Shown here in pieces: positions 1 through 7,538 of a stretch of 44,255 bases of DNA. Source of the DNA: a virus (taxonomy: Duplodnaviria > Heunggongvirae > Uroviricota > Caudoviricetes); IMG/VR virus record IMGVR_UViG_2874920711_000009, positions 1 to 44,255 of that record. One strand, given 5' to 3'. The position numbers were made by a program, and so were the translations under genes. The notes below the pieces were generated by a model, which worked only from the letters and a program-made list of their open reading frames with translations, made no database searches and had not been told where the DNA came from. Numbering within the stretch: the first letter of the stretch is position 1; each line of letters starts with the position of its first letter.

Positions 1-600
1 TCACCCCGGAAAGTTCCAGCATCGATTGCCAGATCTGTTTGCTGGGTTCCCCGTTGCCGCCGCAAGTTTGGTCACCAGCTGTTTTAGCGCATTGTGCTCC
101 GCCGGTAATAAAGGACGGTCGGTCGCCTCGCGCTGCTGTGGTTGCGGAATAACCATCTTCCCTTCCTGCAACAGGGTGAGAATGGTTTTTAATTGCTCCG
201 GTGAGAGCTGATTCAGCGGCGTCTGACCAAAGTTATGACGGATATAATCCGTGACCGCCTGACGATTATTCCCCAGACGTAAATACTCCCCTAATTGCGC
301 TAAAAGCTGGCGGGCAGAATGGCTTTTTTGCGCGGCCAGCAGACGTTGCGCCAGATTATGCTCAGCGGCAGGGAAGTGACGCGAAAGCAGCGGTGAATCT
401 CCCGACAGACCAATATCGTGCCTGATACCCGCCCACAGTTCTGCTCTTTGTTGTTGCGTCAGTGAGGTCACTTTCGTCATTAAGCTTTCCAGCGAAGTAC
501 GTTGCTGACTGGATAAAGGCTGATTGCCCGCGCCAGACGGCAGGTTATCTCCCTGACCTGGTGGCTGCCCAGGAGGAGGGCCGGAAATAGGTTGTATCAT
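1..600 (-). CDS. hypothetical protein, N-terminal 199 codons only (ORF runs off the window start)
   Basis: ORF track 1..600 minus, ATG at 600; Pro/Gln/Gly-rich N-terminus; lies outside the left att-like repeat so probably host flank. Confidence 0.4.
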   Translation of the reverse strand: MIQPISGPPPGQPPGQGDNLPSGAGNQPLSSQQRTSLESLMTKVTSLTQQQRAELWAGIRHDIGLSGDSPLLSRHFPAAEHNLAQRLLAAQKSHSARQLLAQLGEYLRLGNNRQAVTDYIRHNFGQTPLNQLSPEQLKTILTLLQEGKMVIPQPQQREATDRPLLPAEHNALKQLVTKLAAATGNPANRSGNRCWNFPG

Positions 601-765
601 TACGTATCCTTATACCTGAAATCTTCGCAAGTATGCCTGGCCGCGAGATTATGGCACACTTGTCCGGTTAACTCTCGTCTCATACAGGTAACACAAACGT
701 GAAAATCCTTGTTGATGAAAAAAATGATGACTTAATTTATTGATGTAAAAGGATTTATGTCAGCG

Positions 766-785
766 AGTGTCCACGCAGTGACCAC
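766..785. repeat. candidate prophage attachment core, left copy
   Basis: AGTGTCCACGCAGTG is identical (15/15; 19/20 over the extended CCAC) to 44226..44245 at the 3' end of int. Confidence 0.4.
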
Positions 786-995
786 ATTTTCGAGTACAGA
801 TAACACAAAGCCCGTTTTCACGGGCTTTGTGTTATCTGTGATTGTGGCTAAGCCACATGATTTAATACTATTTCCAGTTACAAGCAGCTTGAAGCGGTTT
901 TAGCGCGTTTGACAGGCCGTTTAAATTGAAAGTTGCACTTACGGGGCTCTCATTATAAGGCGTTATTTTTGTATACATTTTGCTTGAGTTGGCTA

Positions 996-2148
996 AATAG
1001 CTGCGCTTAATACCGCTACACTTTTGCCAGTCCATGTTTGCCTCCGGGGAATGGGCTGACGGTTTCCATAAAATGGCGAACTTTTTTCAACAGTTGCCAC
1101 ATTGAGCGGCACTGATGATTACGCGTTATTGTGTCGTGAAGTGCCTGCCATAGCCGTTCAACATGATTCACCCATGGCGAGTAAACCGGCTGATAAATGA
1201 CCCTGAACTTCGGGTTCTCCTTCAGCCAGCTCTGTGTTTCCCGGCTTTTGTGGATAATGTAGTTGTCCACGATCAGCGTGATGGTTTTCGCCCGACGGTA
1301 TGTCGCTTTAAGCCGCTTCAGCAGGCTGATGAACAGCGCCGAACTTTTGCTGTTGCCGCCCACATAGCTGACTTTACCTGTCCCGCTGTGCAGCGCTCCG
1401 GCCAGATAATATTTTTCATTCTGTCCCGGCGTGACCACCCGTTTTTGCTGTCCGCGCAGTTGCCAGTCCGCACCGATTTTGGGATGAAGATGGATATCCA
1501 CTTCATCTTCATAAAAGACCGGATGCTCTGCGCTGCATTCGTCCAGTGCTTTATGGATTGCTGCCATCTTTTCATCTTTATGCGGGTCACGGATACGCAG
1601 AGTTGGCGCAGCCCTTCGCCACACAATCCCCGCAGACGGCAACCAGCGGCGAACGGTTCCGGCATTTAACTGGCAACCGGTTATCTCATTGATTTTTATT
1701 GCCAGCAGTTCTGTACTCCAGCGTGAACGCTGGTAGACAAAGTCGCCGGGAGAATGTTTTACCAGCTCACGTAACAGTGTGCAGATATGCTCAAACGGCC
1801 AGCGACGGGCACGCCCGGCAGGTAATGATTTCAGTCCCTCAACACCCGACTGCGTGAACCAGTTAATCCAGCGTCCAACAGAGGAACGGGCGCAGCAGAG
1901 CGTTCTGGCAACGTCGCTGACACGGTCGCCCCGGTGCAGCATCAGCATGGCAGTCAGTCTGCGGGCATAATTTTTATCGTGTGTTTTATGGATGGCTTTC
2001 TGCATCAGGCGTCGTTCGTCACGGGAAATTGGTGCTATGATCGGCATTGCTCAGTCCGGTTGGTGATTTGTTTTGATTTGGCGATTGATCAGATCGCACA
2101 ATCCGGGCTAAGTTCCCTCAAAGTGATCTACTATTCCGCGCAGCTATT
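996..2148 (-). mobile_element. IS630-family insertion sequence, 1153 bp
   Basis: 343-aa IS630-type transposase inside; terminal inverted repeats AATAGCTGCGC; flanked by TA on both sides within a CTAG target (993..995 and 2149..2151). Confidence 0.85.
1016..2047 (-). CDS. IS630-family transposase
   Basis: 343-aa ORF of typical IS630 transposase length and sequence character, bounded by the IS inverted repeats. Confidence 0.9.
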   Translation of the reverse strand: MPIIAPISRDERRLMQKAIHKTHDKNYARRLTAMLMLHRGDRVSDVARTLCCARSSVGRWINWFTQSGVEGLKSLPAGRARRWPFEHICTLLRELVKHSPGDFVYQRSRWSTELLAIKINEITGCQLNAGTVRRWLPSAGIVWRRAAPTLRIRDPHKDEKMAAIHKALDECSAEHPVFYEDEVDIHLHPKIGADWQLRGQQKRVVTPGQNEKYYLAGALHSGTGKVSYVGGNSKSSALFISLLKRLKATYRRAKTITLIVDNYIIHKSRETQSWLKENPKFRVIYQPVYSPWVNHVERLWQALHDTITRNHQCRSMWQLLKKVRHFMETVSPFPGGKHGLAKV

Positions 2149-2916
2149 TAGTTTTCGGATGAAATCAATGTCATTACCTTTATAAAAAACAGCCTTTGTA
2201 TCTGTAGATACTAGCCAGTTTCGCTCAACTGCTTTCTGTTTATCAAGGCGATAAAGCATGCTGGTTTGTTCAAGGCCTAAATATACATCCCAACTAAGAA
2301 ATACTTCGGTTTTCTTTTCTCGGCAAGCTATAAACAGAGTAGGAGTAACCGCTTCTCCAAATGGAGTTCTGATATAATCATCACTTTCTAACGATAAAAT
2401 TACATTTTTCGAATCATCAATTGGCGATGTAGTAATGGATGTGTGCCATTTTCCTACATCTGTGGCTTTCTCTAATTTTGATTCAGCTTGAACGGCTTTA
2501 TCCTGTGGGAATAGTTTATCGTAGCAGTTTAGTCTGGCTTCTTTATCATTTTCTGCACGACATTTAGATATCTCAGAAAAATTTGGTTGCTGAGCCTCTG
2601 TTGTTACTGGCTTTTCCGTTTTAGATTTTGAGTTTACAGATGGAGTAAATGTTGGAGAAAAGAAACGATCATAACAAGATAAACGTCTATCATCATCTTT
2701 CTCATCAGGGCATTGATCTCTGCTTTCGAATTTTTCAGCAACTTTCGTTCGAGTCGGTTGTATTGACTTATCGTAACAAGAAAGTCTGTCTTTATTATTT
2801 TCTATTGCTCGGCACTGGAGTACTGCATTGAAGTTCTTATGTTCAGTTGCTGCGTGAACAGGCAGTACACTAATTGATATAAATGATGCACCTATAGAAA
2901 AAATTATATTTTTCAT
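2131..2916 (-). CDS. secreted protein with three Cys-containing repeats (C-x8-9-RLxCYD[KR]); 3' end replaced by IS630
   Basis: N-terminal signal peptide MKNIIFSIGASFISISVLPVHA; last 6 codons and stop (KLNSCAE*) are encoded by the IS630 terminal repeat; low GC. Confidence 0.6.
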   Translation of the reverse strand: MKNIIFSIGASFISISVLPVHAATEHKNFNAVLQCRAIENNKDRLSCYDKSIQPTRTKVAEKFESRDQCPDEKDDDRRLSCYDRFFSPTFTPSVNSKSKTEKPVTTEAQQPNFSEISKCRAENDKEARLNCYDKLFPQDKAVQAESKLEKATDVGKWHTSITTSPIDDSKNVILSLESDDYIRTPFGEAVTPTLFIACREKKTEVFLSWDVYLGLEQTSMLYRLDKQKAVERNWLVSTDTKAVFYKGNDIDFIRKLNSCAE

Positions 2917-2920
2917 TTTA

Positions 2921-3253
2921 TTATCCCTTTGGTTTAGTAAGAAATACTAAAATTCCGATAATGATATCGCCAATAACCCATAAGCTTCCAATGGTAATTA
3001 AACCTAAGCCTGTACCAATAACTGCACCGGCTTTTTCGGCATCGGATGTGGCATTATTTATTATTTCACTAGTGCCTCCTAGTCCAACTAAAAGCGTATA
3101 GGTCATAAAAATATTAAATAATATAAAAACCCACTTAATGATCCGTCCAAAAAATGAACGCTTAAGTTTTTGTAGTTGTTTACCACAAGCAGGGCAATAC
3201 AATGCTGAATCGCTTACCTCTTTCTGGCATTCAGGACATTTGATTAATGCCAT
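2921..3253 (-). CDS. zinc-ribbon membrane protein
   Basis: CPEC..x13..CPACG ribbon followed by two hydrophobic helices; 4 bp upstream of the secreted-protein gene, same strand; low GC. Confidence 0.6.
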   Translation of the reverse strand: MALIKCPECQKEVSDSALYCPACGKQLQKLKRSFFGRIIKWVFILFNIFMTYTLLVGLGGTSEIINNATSDAEKAGAVIGTGLGLITIGSLWVIGDIIIGILVFLTKPKG

Positions 3254-3513
3254 GTAATCCGCCTCCTTTGGATTAATACGAGTTGATATTTGTTACAAAA
3301 CATTTTGATTTTATCAGATTTTTTTTATTGATAAGTGTCAATTGATTAGCTGGTATAGAGTGAGGCATATAGAAGGGCTGAGCTGCGTCAGTATGTGATG
3401 CAAAAATCCCACAGTTTCATGGAATTTTTGCATTTAGAGCTGTGAGATAGGGTGCCTTATCGACCTTACCCTGGCAACCGATTGACGGGGATTGCTCCCC
3501 CGTCGCGGTTTCC

Positions 3514-3654
3514 TTACTGCTTACACTGTAAGAACGCCGCAAACTCCGCTCCCCAGAAGCTCATCCGTATTTCACACAGCGAACCGTGTAGCATCCAGAT
3601 GATGAGGATTACCGTCACGCAGAACGTGATGGCCGTAAGCGATTTTTGCGACAT
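3514..3654 (-). CDS. Hok/Gef-family type I toxin-like peptide (46 aa)
   Basis: Hand translation MSQKSLTAITFCVTVILIIWMLHGSLCEIRMSFWGAEFAAFLQCKQ: N-terminal TM helix then LCEIR..x6..EFAAF, matching the Hok/Gef motif LCE[IV]R..EVAAF; not in the ORF track (under 60 aa). Confidence 0.5.
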   Translation of the reverse strand: MSQKSLTAITFCVTVILIIWMLHGSLCEIRMSFWGAEFAAFLQCKQ

Positions 3655-3845
3655 AGCGCTTGCTCCTTTGTTGGAGAGGCGCTAACCTATCACTTGCTTA
3701 AGGTAGATATGTTAGGGCCTCGGTTAAACAAAAATGTTTTCCGGGGCCTTTCCACATCTGGCCTTCGGGTATTCCCTCCGACCATCAGCCGAAAGGCACC
3801 CGCGCGTAATCTATCGCTTTTTTGTTACTCCGGCAATTCTGCCTG

Positions 3846-4106
3846 TTAATTCTGAGGTAAAGGCAAACTCATCTGATTGTTTCCCCTGTGTGAAGCTGGC
3901 AGTTCATGCCACGGGATACCTTCTGAAGAGTGAACGCCGGAGGCATGTTTCGATGTGAATTTATGGAAAGCTTCCAGTGTTGAGAAGCATACGCCGCATT
4001 CCAAGTTGTTACACTGGTAATACTTTTGCCGCACGGTGTTTGAATCATTTTCCGGACGACTGGTGCGGATACGGGCAGATGCGCCACAAAGCGGACAACG
4101 GAACAT
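3846..4106 (-). CDS. ogr: Ogr/Delta-family zinc-finger late-gene activator
   Basis: MFRCPLCG...YYQCNNLECG zinc-finger pattern; GGGAGG RBS; adjacent to gpD as in P2. Confidence 0.8.
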   Translation of the reverse strand: MFRCPLCGASARIRTSRPENDSNTVRQKYYQCNNLECGVCFSTLEAFHKFTSKHASGVHSSEGIPWHELPASHRGNNQMSLPLPQN

Positions 4107-4148
4107 AGCGACCTCCCTTAACGTGGTGCTGCCGCTATTCTAAGTTGC

Positions 4149-5258
4149 TCACTCTGTTTCCGCTATCCATTCCGGGATTTTTGCCTCAAGCTCAAGCTGC
4201 GTGGTAAAGCCGCTGTTATCAATGGTGTGCTCGACTTTCGCAATAATCCAGTCCTGATTATCAATCTCGCTTTTAAATCCTGTTACCGTGCCATGCATTT
4301 CGGGGTAGAGTTCTGCGCGTCCACGTGCCAGTGTGATGGAGAACGCTGCGGCTCCGCGTTGTAGCTGCTGCCACTTTGCCGCCGCTGCGCGTCTTGCTGC
4401 CTGCTCGTTCTGATAAGTCTTGCGTAACACAAACACATTGCCTTCCGCGCCTTCCATATAATCACCTTCACGGCTGCTGCTTTTCTCCTTTTTCGGTTTG
4501 GGTGGTTTGCGGCGTTTCACGCTGACTTTTTTCTTTTTCCCATAGTTAAGATCAAGCCAGTAGGCGCGCACCCCCGTATACGCCTCGCGGTCAGCAATGC
4601 GGAACTGATGGCGATCGCCGCTGCTGCGTGTGATGGCGAACGATGGCAACGGCTGGCCCTGTGCGTTCACGCCACCACCTGGCATGATGAATAACAGATT
4701 GCCGCTTTTTACCGTGGTGATTGCGCCCAGCATTTCCGCCATGCGCGTAAGGAAGGACATGTCGCTTTCTTCGGTCTGGTCGGCGTGGTCGATTTCGATC
4801 TCCATCAGCATTTCGCTGATTTGCGGTTTCAGACCGTACCGATGAGCGATGGCAGATACCACGCGCTCAACGGTCACATCATGCCAGGATACTTCATGTT
4901 TAACGTTAAATTCATCCCGAAAATCTGCGCTTCTGGCTGAAACAGTCAGCCTGTCCGGCGGTCATTCGTGAGCGATTTCATCAACAATGTAAGTGCCTTT
5001 TTCTGTCAGCGGTTCTCCTTTCCAGCCAATGAGAACCGTCAGGCGCGCGCCCCGTGGCGGTAGCTGCAACTGACCATCCGCATCATCCAGCGTGATGGTG
5101 AGCTGGTCCGCCTCAAATCCCCGGTTGTCGGTCAGTGACAGGCTCATCAGGCGCTCTGCCACGCCTGACAGCGCTTTACCCTCCGCGAGAATATCAAAAT
5201 CCGGCATTTTCACGGGGTCTGTGCCCTGACTGAGCAATTGCATGGTGGTGTCGGTCAT
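4149..5258 (-). pseudogene. D: tail protein gpD (late control D), frame broken between about 4880 and 4960 as given
   Basis: N-terminal fragment from ATG 5258 (GGGAGG RBS) ends at 4962; C-terminal 242-aa fragment 4149..4877 in another frame. Confidence 0.75.
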
Positions 5259-5414
5259 CTGTTCCCTCCCTGTGCGGCATGGTCGCATGTGCGTGCGGAG
5301 GGGGTTACTGCTTTTTGTTGTCGCCGTGGCGGGAGAACGGCGCAGGGGTGAGATTACGCGCGTGGTGGGTGATGATTGTTGCCGAATCATTTAACGGATA
5401 CAAGGGCTGAAGCT

Positions 5415-6599
5415 ATGAGTGAAACTCGTTTTCATGGTGCCCGTGTTACGGCAAATACCGACCTGGTAACAGCGATTAACGATGTTGATTCCAGCATTAT
5501 CGGTATCGTGGCAACGGCGGATGATGCGGACGCGAAGCTGTTCCCGCTGAACAAGCCCACACTGCTGACCCGCGTCAATGACGTGCTGGGAAAATGCGGG
5601 ACAACGGGGACGCTTTATCGTGCGCTTAAGGCCATCGCAGACCAGGTGAGCACAAAGGTGATCGTCGTTCGCGTGGCTGAACACAAAGAAGAAGACGGAA
5701 AGACGCAGGATCAACTGGTTATCGGTGGTTCTGAGGATGACGGCAGCTATACGGGGATGTATGCGCTGCTTGTTGCAGAGCAGGATGAAAGCATCGGATA
5801 CCGTCCGCGTATTCTGGCCGCGCCGGAGCTGGACACGGAGGCGGTAACAAAATCCCTGTGCGTGATTGCGGGTAAACTGCGCGCGTTTGTGTATGCCTCA
5901 TGTCACGGCTGTAACACGATGGCTGAGGCGATTACCTACCGCCAGAAATTCAACGAACGTGAGGTGATGCTTCTGTGGCCGGATTTTATCGCTTACAACC
6001 CGAAAAGTGGTAAAAACGAAACGTTCCCCGCGCCTGCTTATGCGTGCGGCCTTCGTGCGTATATTGACCATGAGCAGGGCTGGCACAAATCGCTGTCCAA
6101 TGTTCCGGTTAAAAATGTCCTGGGCATGTCAAAACATGTTTTCTGGTCGTTACAGGCCGAGGACAGTGACGCCAACAGCCTCAACAACAAGGAAATCACC
6201 ACCATCATTCGCCGCAACGGGTTCCGCTTCTGGGGCAACCGCACACCGGAAACGAACGCCTACATCTTTGAGGTGTATACCCGAACCGCACAGGTGCTGG
6301 CTGATTCAATTGCGGAAGCGCAGTTTGAAACCATCGACAGTCCACTGACACCTGCGAACGTGAAGGATGTTATCAGCGCCATCAGGGCAAAACTGGATTC
6401 GCTGGTTACTGCCGGGAAACTGATTGGTGCGGAGTGCTGGTATGACGTGGTGGATAACGGCACCACGGATTTACGTCAGGGACGTGTGCGTATTCGCTAC
6501 AAATATACGCCCGTTCCGCCACTGGAAGACATGGAGCTTTACCAGACGTTTACTGATGAATTCTTTGGTCCCGCATTTGCGGTGCTGGGAGGTGCCTGA
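5415..6599 (+). CDS. FI: contractile tail sheath protein gpFI
   Basis: Intact ORF; strong similarity to recalled P2 FI (FPLNKP..., AIADQ..., LRAF.Y.S..GC.T..E...YRQ.F..RE.M..WPDF, GWHK.LSNV, IRR.GFRFWGNRT, Y.YTPVPPLE). Confidence 0.9.
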   Translation: MSETRFHGARVTANTDLVTAINDVDSSIIGIVATADDADAKLFPLNKPTLLTRVNDVLGKCGTTGTLYRALKAIADQVSTKVIVVRVAEHKEEDGKTQDQLVIGGSEDDGSYTGMYALLVAEQDESIGYRPRILAAPELDTEAVTKSLCVIAGKLRAFVYASCHGCNTMAEAITYRQKFNEREVMLLWPDFIAYNPKSGKNETFPAPAYACGLRAYIDHEQGWHKSLSNVPVKNVLGMSKHVFWSLQAEDSDANSLNNKEITTIIRRNGFRFWGNRTPETNAYIFEVYTRTAQVLADSIAEAQFETIDSPLTPANVKDVISAIRAKLDSLVTAGKLIGAECWYDVVDNGTTDLRQGRVRIRYKYTPVPPLEDMELYQTFTDEFFGPAFAVLGGA

Positions 6600-7108
6600 T
6601 GGCTGTACCAAAACATCTTCGCTTTTTTACGTTGTTTGTGGATGGTGAAAACGAAGTGGGCAAAGTGACATCCGTCACGCCGCCCAAACTGACGCGCAAA
6701 ACCGACAGCTATCGTGGTGGTGGCATGATGGGGCGGTAAGTATTGATCTCGGTCTGGACGACTCCGCGCTTGATGCGAGTTTTGTCATGGGGGAGCTGTT
6801 CGTGCGCTGTTCCTTAAATATGGCGGCACGATTGACGGCACGCTGCTGCGTTTTGCGGGTGAATACTACACCGATGCAGAAAGCGATCTGTATGAAATCG
6901 AGATGCGCGGGCGTGTGACGGAAATTGATATGGGGAAGCCAAACAGGGCGAAGCCACATCACACACTTACGCTGTCAAAAACACCTACTACAAGCTGAGC
7001 GTTAACGATCGCCCGCTGTGGGAAATCGACCTGTTGAACCACATCTACCGGAAGGACGGCAAGGACATTGTGCCTGACCGTATCCGTTCCGCGCTTGGGC
7101 TTGGCTGA
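6600..7108 (+). pseudogene. FII: tail tube protein gpFII, several frame breaks as given
   Basis: Starts MAVPKHLRFFTLFVDGENEVGKVTSVTPPKLTRK (FII-like) then loses frame; no long ORF in 6600..7110. Confidence 0.65.
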
Positions 7109-7163
7109 TAAGTAATATGCAGGCGGCGCAGTGCGTCGCCTCTGACTGAAAAGGAGACAACTA

Positions 7164-7538
7164 ATGAAAGACATCGATACTGAAACCCGGAATAACACCG
7201 TGGCGGATGATGTGACGGCAGGTGAGGATATGGCTGTCGAACGTGGCGTAAAACTGACCCGACCAATTGAGCGTGGTGGCGAAAAAATCACGTATGTGGA
7301 GATCACCGGGGCTATTGAGCAGGGTGGATCCCTGCGTGGTCTGTCGCTGTCTGATGTGCTGAATCTGAAAGCGGATACCATGTTTACGCTGTTGCCTCGC
7401 GTGACCTCGCCACGACTGGATGAAGTGATGATTAAAAAAATGTCGTCACGCGATTTTATTCAGTTGTGCGCTGTGGCTGTAAATTTTATGAGCGAGCCAG
7501 ACTCTGGCGCGAAGAGCGTGCAGGAGACGGCAGCGTAA
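7164..7538 (+). CDS. E: tail assembly chaperone gpE
   Basis: 124-aa ORF after FII with RBS AAAGGAGA; position and size class as P2 E. Confidence 0.75.
   Translation: MKDIDTETRNNTVADDVTAGEDMAVERGVKLTRPIERGGEKITYVEITGAIEQGGSLRGLSLSDVLNLKADTMFTLLPRVTSPRLDEVMIKKMSSRDFIQLCAVAVNFMSEPDSGAKSVQETAA

Follow-up and report, generated by a model that had tools for sequence, protein, structure and literature searches.

A two-gene operon of low G+C content lies at the ogr-proximal end of a P88/phiSM-like, P2-type prophage (family Peduoviridae) in the IMG/VR record IMGVR_UViG_2874920711_000009, of which positions 1 to 44,255 (44,255 nucleotides in all, called the window here) were analyzed. One gene encodes an exported protein of the VasI/TagO family, known from type VI secretion systems (T6SS), and the other encodes a zinc-ribbon membrane protein. 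The operon is almost certainly accessory (moron) cargo in a variable slot between ogr/hok and attR. Its exported protein, judged by sequence, belongs to a phage-borne branch of its own within the VasI family, distinguished by multiplied hairpins and a dedicated membrane partner, and is not the equivalog of the T6SS protein. In the window, the VasI-like gene is inactivated by an IS630 element and is a fresh pseudogene. A role for the intact operon in lysogen envelope protection or exclusion is possible, and is the explanation that we tentatively prefer.

An exported VasI-family protein and its membrane partner

With the IS630 element removed (see below), the VasI-like protein is 297 amino acids long. 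An earlier sequence-only reading of this DNA had proposed domain searches for it, and these returned the Pfam family VasI (PF11319) at 89 bits, compared with a gathering threshold of 26.5. The match aligns residues 118 to 296 with profile positions 1 to 184, and the two extra hairpins add matched stretches of their own. The protein also matches the phage family phrog_1848 (function unassigned; E value of 3e-37). Its relatives form a large family (6449 clusters at 50% identity with an E value of 1e-3 or lower). Homologs carry one, two, or three hairpins and measure about 210, 250, or 297 amino acids, respectively.

The signal peptide and three repeats described in the sequence-only reading are both present. 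A Sec signal peptide, read from the sequence, ends in ...VHA/AT, and C-x8-RLxCYD motifs start at residues 35, 69, and 119. In an AlphaFold 2 model built with 38 homologs, each repeat is a helix-turn-helix hairpin, with disordered linkers between the repeats, and the predicted local distance difference test score exceeds 90 over residues 150 to 297, where the chain forms a beta-sandwich. Residues C119, R128, L129, C131, D133, C198, and C294 are invariant, and W296 is nearly so. The invariant pairs C119/C131 and C198/C294 fit one disulfide per hairpin plus one that closes the sandwich. The product is near certain to be a Sec-exported member of PF11319, with disulfide-stapled hairpins followed by a C-terminal IalB-like beta-sandwich, and its predicted location is the periplasm. 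A sequence search of the Protein Data Bank (PDB) gave no meaningful match.

The partner gene is intact and also answers to its earlier description as a zinc-ribbon membrane protein. A four-cysteine zinc ribbon occupies residues 1 to 27 (Zn_Ribbon_1, 31.8 bits) and is followed by a two-helix membrane hairpin, with helices at residues 34 to 66 and 71 to 105 and an invariant Asp96 in the second helix. The partner is predicted to be an inner-membrane protein with its zinc ribbon on the cytoplasmic side. It matches phrog_6586 (E value of 8e-41), and its family is narrow, being found in Enterobacterales and one Haemophilus, with a length that is nearly always 110 amino acids.

The partner gene lies 4 nucleotides upstream of the VasI-like start codon, and G+C content is 0.36 across positions 2151 to 3253, compared with 0.527 in the phage backbone, so that the two-gene, low-GC operon between ogr and the prophage end noted from sequence alone is borne out (Table 1). 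Both genes are under purifying selection, with dN/dS values of 0.08 to 0.35 for the VasI-like gene and 0.2 to 0.57 for its partner in comparisons with a dS of at least 0.05. The region upstream of the operon contains no TGT-N12-ACA site of the Ogr-type late promoter.

Table 1. Positions of the operon, its interrupting element, and neighboring features in the window
Feature	Positions	Strand	Basis or content
Zinc-ribbon/two-transmembrane-helix partner gene, intact, 110 amino acids	2921..3253	-	Zn_Ribbon_1, phrog_6586
VasI/TagO-like gene, 5' portion (residues 1-256)	2151..2916	-	PF11319, phrog_1848, AlphaFold 2 model
VasI/TagO-like gene, 3' remnant	868..995	-	Part of codon 256, codons 257-297, stop at 868-870
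IS630	996..2148	-	1153 bp; NF033545 match, terminal inverted repeats, TA duplication in CTAG
IS630 transposase open reading frame	1016..2047	-	NF033545
Upstream region of operon	3254..3450	-	G+C content 0.35, strong Shine-Dalgarno sequence AGGAGG
hok/gef-family toxin open reading frame, 46 amino acids	3514..3654	-	
sok-like antisense RNA, overlapping	3644..3801	-	RF01794, 47.6 bits
ogr	3846..4106	-	Ogr-proximal prophage end
Late control gene D	4149..5390	-	In-frame stop at codon 99
Inverted repeat, 14 bp	803..838		Perfect
flk (host gene)	1..600	-	Beside prophage end

A recent IS630 insertion

The element that splits the VasI-like gene, placed in a CTAG site by the sequence-only reading, has the hallmarks of the IS630 family, with a DDE transposase (255 bits on NF033545; cutoff, 100), a length of about 1.15 kb, and perfect 11-bp terminal inverted repeats at its bounds (AATAGCTGCGC). 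The target TA, within CTAG, is duplicated at positions 994 to 995 and 2149 to 2150 on either side of the element. Identity to annotated IS630 copies is 99.7%.

As it now stands, the interrupted open reading frame (positions 2131 to 2916) encodes 261 amino acids, consisting of native residues 1 to 256 and the foreign residues NSCAE. Deleting positions 996 to 2150 in silico, which removes IS630 and one TA, joins 2916 to 2151 with 995 to 868 and restores a 297-amino-acid minus-strand frame that ends ...LQAACNWK*, as the sequence-only reading had predicted for such a splice. The restored 894-nucleotide gene has no mismatches to an intact allele adjoining flk in Escherichia coli C7 (WP_000789402.1), and the 70-nucleotide restored junction is present verbatim in that strain. 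An uninterrupted allele in a related strain, proposed earlier as a check, therefore exists. The junction created by IS630 was absent from all complete RefSeq E. coli genomes searched. Because the restored gene is 100% identical to the C7 allele, the insertion must be very recent.

Truncation of the exported protein had been recognized from sequence alone, with a loss put at about 38 codons; the actual cost is 41 codons (residues 257 to 297), in exchange for the five foreign ones. The 5' portion retains the signal peptide (residues 1 to 22), the three hairpins, and most of the beta-sandwich. Four invariant residues (P268, Y269, F278, and C294) are lost, as is W296, which is nearly invariant, and in the AlphaFold 2 model the missing segment makes up two strands and the terminal helix. 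Deprived of two strands, the terminal helix, and invariant core positions, the truncated product should not fold. As one more pseudogene of a decaying prophage, the module in the window is unremarkable, but it is useful as a pointer to a widespread two-gene module.

A second, independent inactivation was seen in E. coli 67-1 (NZ_CP035826.1, positions 3245 to 4155; locus L103), where the VasI-like gene is split into open reading frames of 282 and 567 nucleotides beside an intact zinc-ribbon gene.

A widespread cargo in a variable slot

The pair is already catalogued and annotated, and P2-family prophages, P88/phiSM-like ones among them, carry it widely. Of 5426 complete E. coli genomes, 240 contain module DNA; this ogr/gpD type is present in 1202 E. 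coli genomes, but the module in only 240. It also occurs in Klebsiella and Enterobacter and in the described Escherichia phages PhiR44_2 and 500465-2, Citrobacter phage phiSM, and Xuanwuvirus P884B11. In these phages, where phiSM ORF1 is named "T6SS VasI family protein," both genes share 93 to 99% DNA identity with the window and the same position after ogr, but their copies are intact, whereas that of the window is interrupted by IS630. All of the enterobacterial homologs that were looked up are terminal in P2-type prophages, following gpD-ogr. They cover four attachment sites (flk/pdxB, yccJ, fieF/pfkA, and tamB/ytfP) and include one-, two-, and three-repeat forms.

These properties fit a moron: the operon has the last conserved phage gene to one side and the attachment site to the other, has a deviant G+C content, and is present in some and absent from other similar prophages. 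Among eight sampled relatives, the slot after hok was found in five states. It was empty, held small genes of unassigned function, held a RES toxin together with the VasI-like/zinc-ribbon pair, held genes for a TM2 protein, Com, and a DNA methyltransferase, or held a frameshifted copy of the VasI-like gene. In its behavior, the slot between ogr and attR resembles a minor hotspot where conflict-type cargo collects. Examples of such contents are the RES-family NAD+ phosphorylase toxin at positions 3427 to 4254 of NZ_CM169499.1 (locus L108) and the TM2-domain/zinc-ribbon protein, Com regulator, and DNA methyltransferase at positions 3097 to 4534 of NZ_CM181219.1 (locus L109).

The link between the two genes extends to other viral sequences. 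A relative of the VasI-like protein is encoded by 122 IMG/VR contigs, and the zinc-ribbon gene is immediately upstream in 65 of the best 80 IMG/VR loci. Exceptions fall into two groups, one of them made up of solitary VasI-like copies after ogr. The other group belongs to a second type of integrative element, which encodes, in this order, ribbon-helix-helix and helix-turn-helix regulators (the latter a repressor), a 200-amino-acid protein, a one-hairpin VasI-like protein, and a tyrosine integrase (loci L087 and L090 to L100). In one of these loci (L097, positions 5669 to 7517), an AAA_15 ATPase gene whose product matches PADLOC NsnB (E value of 2e-51) and a gene for a 172-amino-acid protein are inserted between these genes, beside the VasI-like gene.

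Two other candidates bearing on partnership were set aside. In E. coli, the two-repeat form (L007) has as its neighbor a protein that combines a TM2 domain with a zinc ribbon, and this protein was considered as an analogous partner; the idea was dropped because the same TM2 gene occurs without a VasI-like gene (L109) and is convergent rather than cotranscribed. A 243-amino-acid protein (P0052) in which a zinc ribbon is joined to a VasI signal peptide could be viewed as a "Rosetta stone" fusion. It was given little weight because it comes from a single contig, lacks the two-transmembrane part, and looks like the result of a deletion.

Product names in one relevant GenBank entry (OR565851.1, Citrobacter phage Shae_phiSM, positions 165 to 4595; locus L002) seem to be shifted by one gene. 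The name "tagO" is attached to the 333-nucleotide zinc-ribbon gene and the actual VasI-like gene is labeled hypothetical, while "ogr" is on an 1110-nucleotide gene the size of gpD and "late control gene D" is on a gene at the tail-sheath position, which is cut off where the retrieved stretch ends.

Comparison with VasI/TagO of type VI secretion systems

The nearest characterized relatives of the exported protein are T6SS accessory proteins rather than housekeeping proteins. The T6SS proteins (VCA0118 of Vibrio cholerae and ECs_0222 of E. coli Sakai) are likewise exported members of PF11319, in which a disulfide-bonded C-x8-RLxCYD hairpin precedes a beta-sandwich ending in C-x-W. They differ in having one hairpin, whereas the window protein has three, and the window gene differs in being prophage borne and in adjoining a zinc-ribbon membrane gene. 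On TIGR03360, the T6SS equivalog model (cutoff, 124.2 bits), the window protein scores 76.2 bits, below the cutoff, and other prophage forms score 32 to 57 bits, compared with 257 bits for ECs_0222. The window protein and ECs_0222 can be aligned end to end at 26% identity.

Genomic location separates the two groups as well. The gene for ECs_0222 lies in the T6SS-2 cluster between clpV and tssA, whereas the window gene is found in the interval from ogr/hok to flk, outside any T6SS cluster, and none of about 100 homolog loci examined was inside one. P2-family prophages, along with integrative elements of other types, carry a distinct and well-conserved branch of VasI proteins with a variable number of hairpins and a dedicated membrane partner. 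Annotation pipelines call this branch "T6SS-associated" although it falls below the equivalog cutoff, and the name is probably misleading. Within the T6SS itself, V. cholerae VasI is exported, is dispensable for secretion of Hcp and VgrG, and is needed for full killing (PMC3166118), and a 2026 review lists the role of VasI/TagO as "Unknown" (PMC13584744).

A possible role in lysogen envelope protection

In the explanation of the intact operon that we tentatively prefer, both products would be made together and would act in the envelope of the lysogen. The VasI-fold protein in the periplasm would dock on a trans-envelope structure or on the cell wall, and the zinc-ribbon protein would serve as its inner-membrane partner, the two being predicted to interact physically. 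The outcome would be a lysogen shielded from incoming contractile injection machines, meaning phage superinfection and possibly T6SS attack. Under this explanation, the operon does not furnish the T6SS of the host with a component. The sequence-only reading called the operon a candidate module for lysogenic conversion or exclusion, with its function unassigned, and that cautious label remains fair.

Clues to such a role come from other carriers of the fold. VasI domains are fused to PG_binding_1 domains, to TonB/TolA C-terminal domains, or to both in three proteins (P0198, P0223, and P0157), and these fusions, together with a resemblance to flagellar-ring proteins, point to a periplasmic adaptor that docks on the wall or on structures spanning the envelope. 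Uncharacterized proteins with this fold are also encoded by the virulent T4-like phages RB16 and KP15, which have no lysogen to convert, and this is hard to square with a pure host-virulence role. Three further VasI-domain proteins (P0242, P0234, and P0255) have long N-terminal extensions without a Pfam match.

Small phage envelope proteins that guard an infected or lysogenic cell from further injection are known: T4 Sp and Imm, P22 SieA, and HK97 gp15 are periplasmic or inner-membrane superinfection-exclusion proteins. The operon would resemble these membrane and periplasmic proteins in the proposed mode of action only, and homology to them is not expected. Another comparison is with SDIC4, an anti-phage system from a Serratia defense island that is included in DefenseFinder. 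It too is a small operon; its key component, the signal-peptide protein SDIC4B, has a reported VasI-like fold and alone gave 10- to 200-fold protection from phage (bioRxiv 10.1101/2024.01.28.577318), and by our own reading of the published construct sequence, subtype II includes a small membrane protein. SDIC4 differs in being chromosomal, in defense islands, and often beside BrxR. Its SDIC4A component, compared by architecture only, is a 150-amino-acid secreted protein with a signal peptide, no zinc ribbon, and no Pfam match. Homology of the window protein to SDIC4B was rejected on the basis of negative single-sequence and profile-profile hhalign comparisons and different Pfam families, and SDIC4 is a precedent for the use of such a fold, not a family for the window gene.

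Several results weigh against envelope protection. The hhalign probability was 0.13% when the family profile was aligned with SDIC4B alone and 2.4% when it was aligned with the SDIC4B family profile. The Pfam family of SDIC4B is PF27224, while homologs of the window protein carry PF11319 and not PF27224. Neither operon protein was matched by PADLOC, and guilt by association in the slot is a weak argument because the slot also holds nondefense genes. The VasI-like gene occurs without its zinc-ribbon partner in some prophages (L068, L070, and L093), so the partnership is not obligate. In a scan for sigma-70 promoters and terminators, match counts did not exceed those in shuffled controls, and no promoter could be assigned. 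The authors of the phiSM study reported no fitness phenotype in K-12 lysogens during laboratory growth (PMC6456863).

A more specific form of the idea is more doubtful still. The operon could represent a new prophage-borne envelope immunity system, in which a VasI-fold adaptor on flexible stapled hairpins would intercept or sense the tip of an incoming contractile injection machine (phage tail or T6SS spike) and a DrpB-like partner would block entry or relay a signal. If true, this would also account for the job of the VasI fold inside T6SS clusters. More generally, if the prophage branch protects lysogens at the envelope, about 4% of complete E. coli genomes would carry an added defense or exclusion system, and two genes would suffice as a simple means of probing what the VasI fold does biochemically.

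Envelope protection or exclusion was nevertheless ranked first among the explanations compared, and the one nearest to current annotation seems unlikely. It holds that the prophage protein is a phage-supplied T6SS accessory that joins the T6SS of the host and raises killing as a virulence or competition factor, as implied by the RefSeq name "T6SS-associated protein TagO." True membership in PF11319 and the shared layout of signal peptide, C-x8-RLxCYD hairpin, and sandwich ending in C-x-W are consistent with this, as is the ability of V. cholerae VasI to boost killing without an effect on secretion (PMC3166118), and phiSM ORF1 has been listed as T6SS VasI-family virulence cargo (PMC6456863). 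The TIGR03360 scores (76 bits against a cutoff of 124, and 257 for the host-type protein), the low identity to TagO of the same species, and the placement of all of the roughly 100 loci outside T6SS clusters argue otherwise. In addition, the conserved zinc-ribbon membrane partner is not a T6SS gene, and hosts with a T6SS-2 cluster already encode a TagO of their own. K-12 strains are not known to have a T6SS, which also bears against a T6SS accessory. Prophage phiSM lysogenizes such strains (PMC6456863).

Also improbable is that the pair modulates the state of the envelope, with a DrpB-like two-helix protein and its periplasmic partner altering division or the Rcs stress response (for example, capsule), a lysogenic conversion that would change the physiology or surface of the host, and phage resistance arising indirectly. 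DrpB (YedR), a small E. coli divisome protein and Rcs activator, likewise has two helices that form an inner-membrane hairpin, about equal in length and bordered by matching motifs (RSxxGK, SD..AG, and TRP[K/R]), and in multicopy it activates Rcs via the periplasmic domain of RcsC (PMC11709261). The two-transmembrane part of the zinc-ribbon protein gives a weak, recurrent match to the DrpB/YedR model NF038392 (19.2 bits; E value of 0.001) over nearly its full length, hhalign gives an E value of 0.0011 over 76 columns, several members of the partner family have precomputed "weak" matches to PF28000, and VasI domains are fused elsewhere to peptidoglycan-binding domains. However, DrpB has no zinc ribbon, the hhalign probability is 21%, the NF038392 score is far below the cutoff of 50, and none of 25 members matched DrpB in a Pfam scan. 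Similarity of this level is not significant and, among two-helix membrane hairpins, could easily be compositional. Least likely by some way is a host-interaction factor of the IalB type, a secreted protein that would help adhere to or invade eukaryotic cells or surfaces; such a role has been proposed for IalB of Bartonella and has been a matter of speculation for VCA0118. IalB (PDB 3dtd) is the closest solved fold, PF06776 gives a subthreshold 20.4 bits, and a VCA0118 mutant is avirulent to amoebae (PMC3166118); however, identity to IalB is 14 to 18%, IalB has no hairpin repeats, and its own mechanism is likewise uncharacterized. A plain Sec signal peptide provides no route across the outer membrane, pairing with an inner-membrane protein suggests work in the periplasm, virulent T4-like phages encode the same fold, and the module is found in environmental or plant-associated Enterobacterales (Pectobacterium, Dickeya, and Pantoea).

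Surroundings of the operon and decay of the prophage

Between the operon and ogr lie a hok/gef-family toxin gene and an overlapping sok-like antisense RNA, the latter scoring below the RF01794 gathering score of 59. The G+C content of this stretch is like that of the backbone and unlike that of the low-GC cargo, and hok is kept beside ogr in many related prophages.

Late control gene D has an in-frame stop (...IAHE*PPDR...) compared with an intact 369-amino-acid allele, and the prophage is therefore probably defective. In RefSeq, a shortened gpD of 266 amino acids (WP_244448995.1) with a small pseudogene fragment is annotated in five of eight sampled E. coli relatives. Measured against the intact E. 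coli protein of 331 amino acids, the host gene flk has a frameshift near codon 184, and in the source chromosome it is called as two open reading frames (199 and 138 amino acids). Together, the flk frameshift, the IS630 insertion, and the gpD stop suggest a genome undergoing gene decay. The DNA of the window matches NCBI record CP026824.1 (assembly GCA_002949875.1), and a host of Shigella type is conceivable.

Just beyond the VasI-like stop codon, in the junction between flk and the prophage, is a perfect 14-bp inverted repeat (AACACAAAGCCCGT...ACGGGCTTTGTGTT) without a T run. Its role may be in termination, or it may belong to the attachment site.

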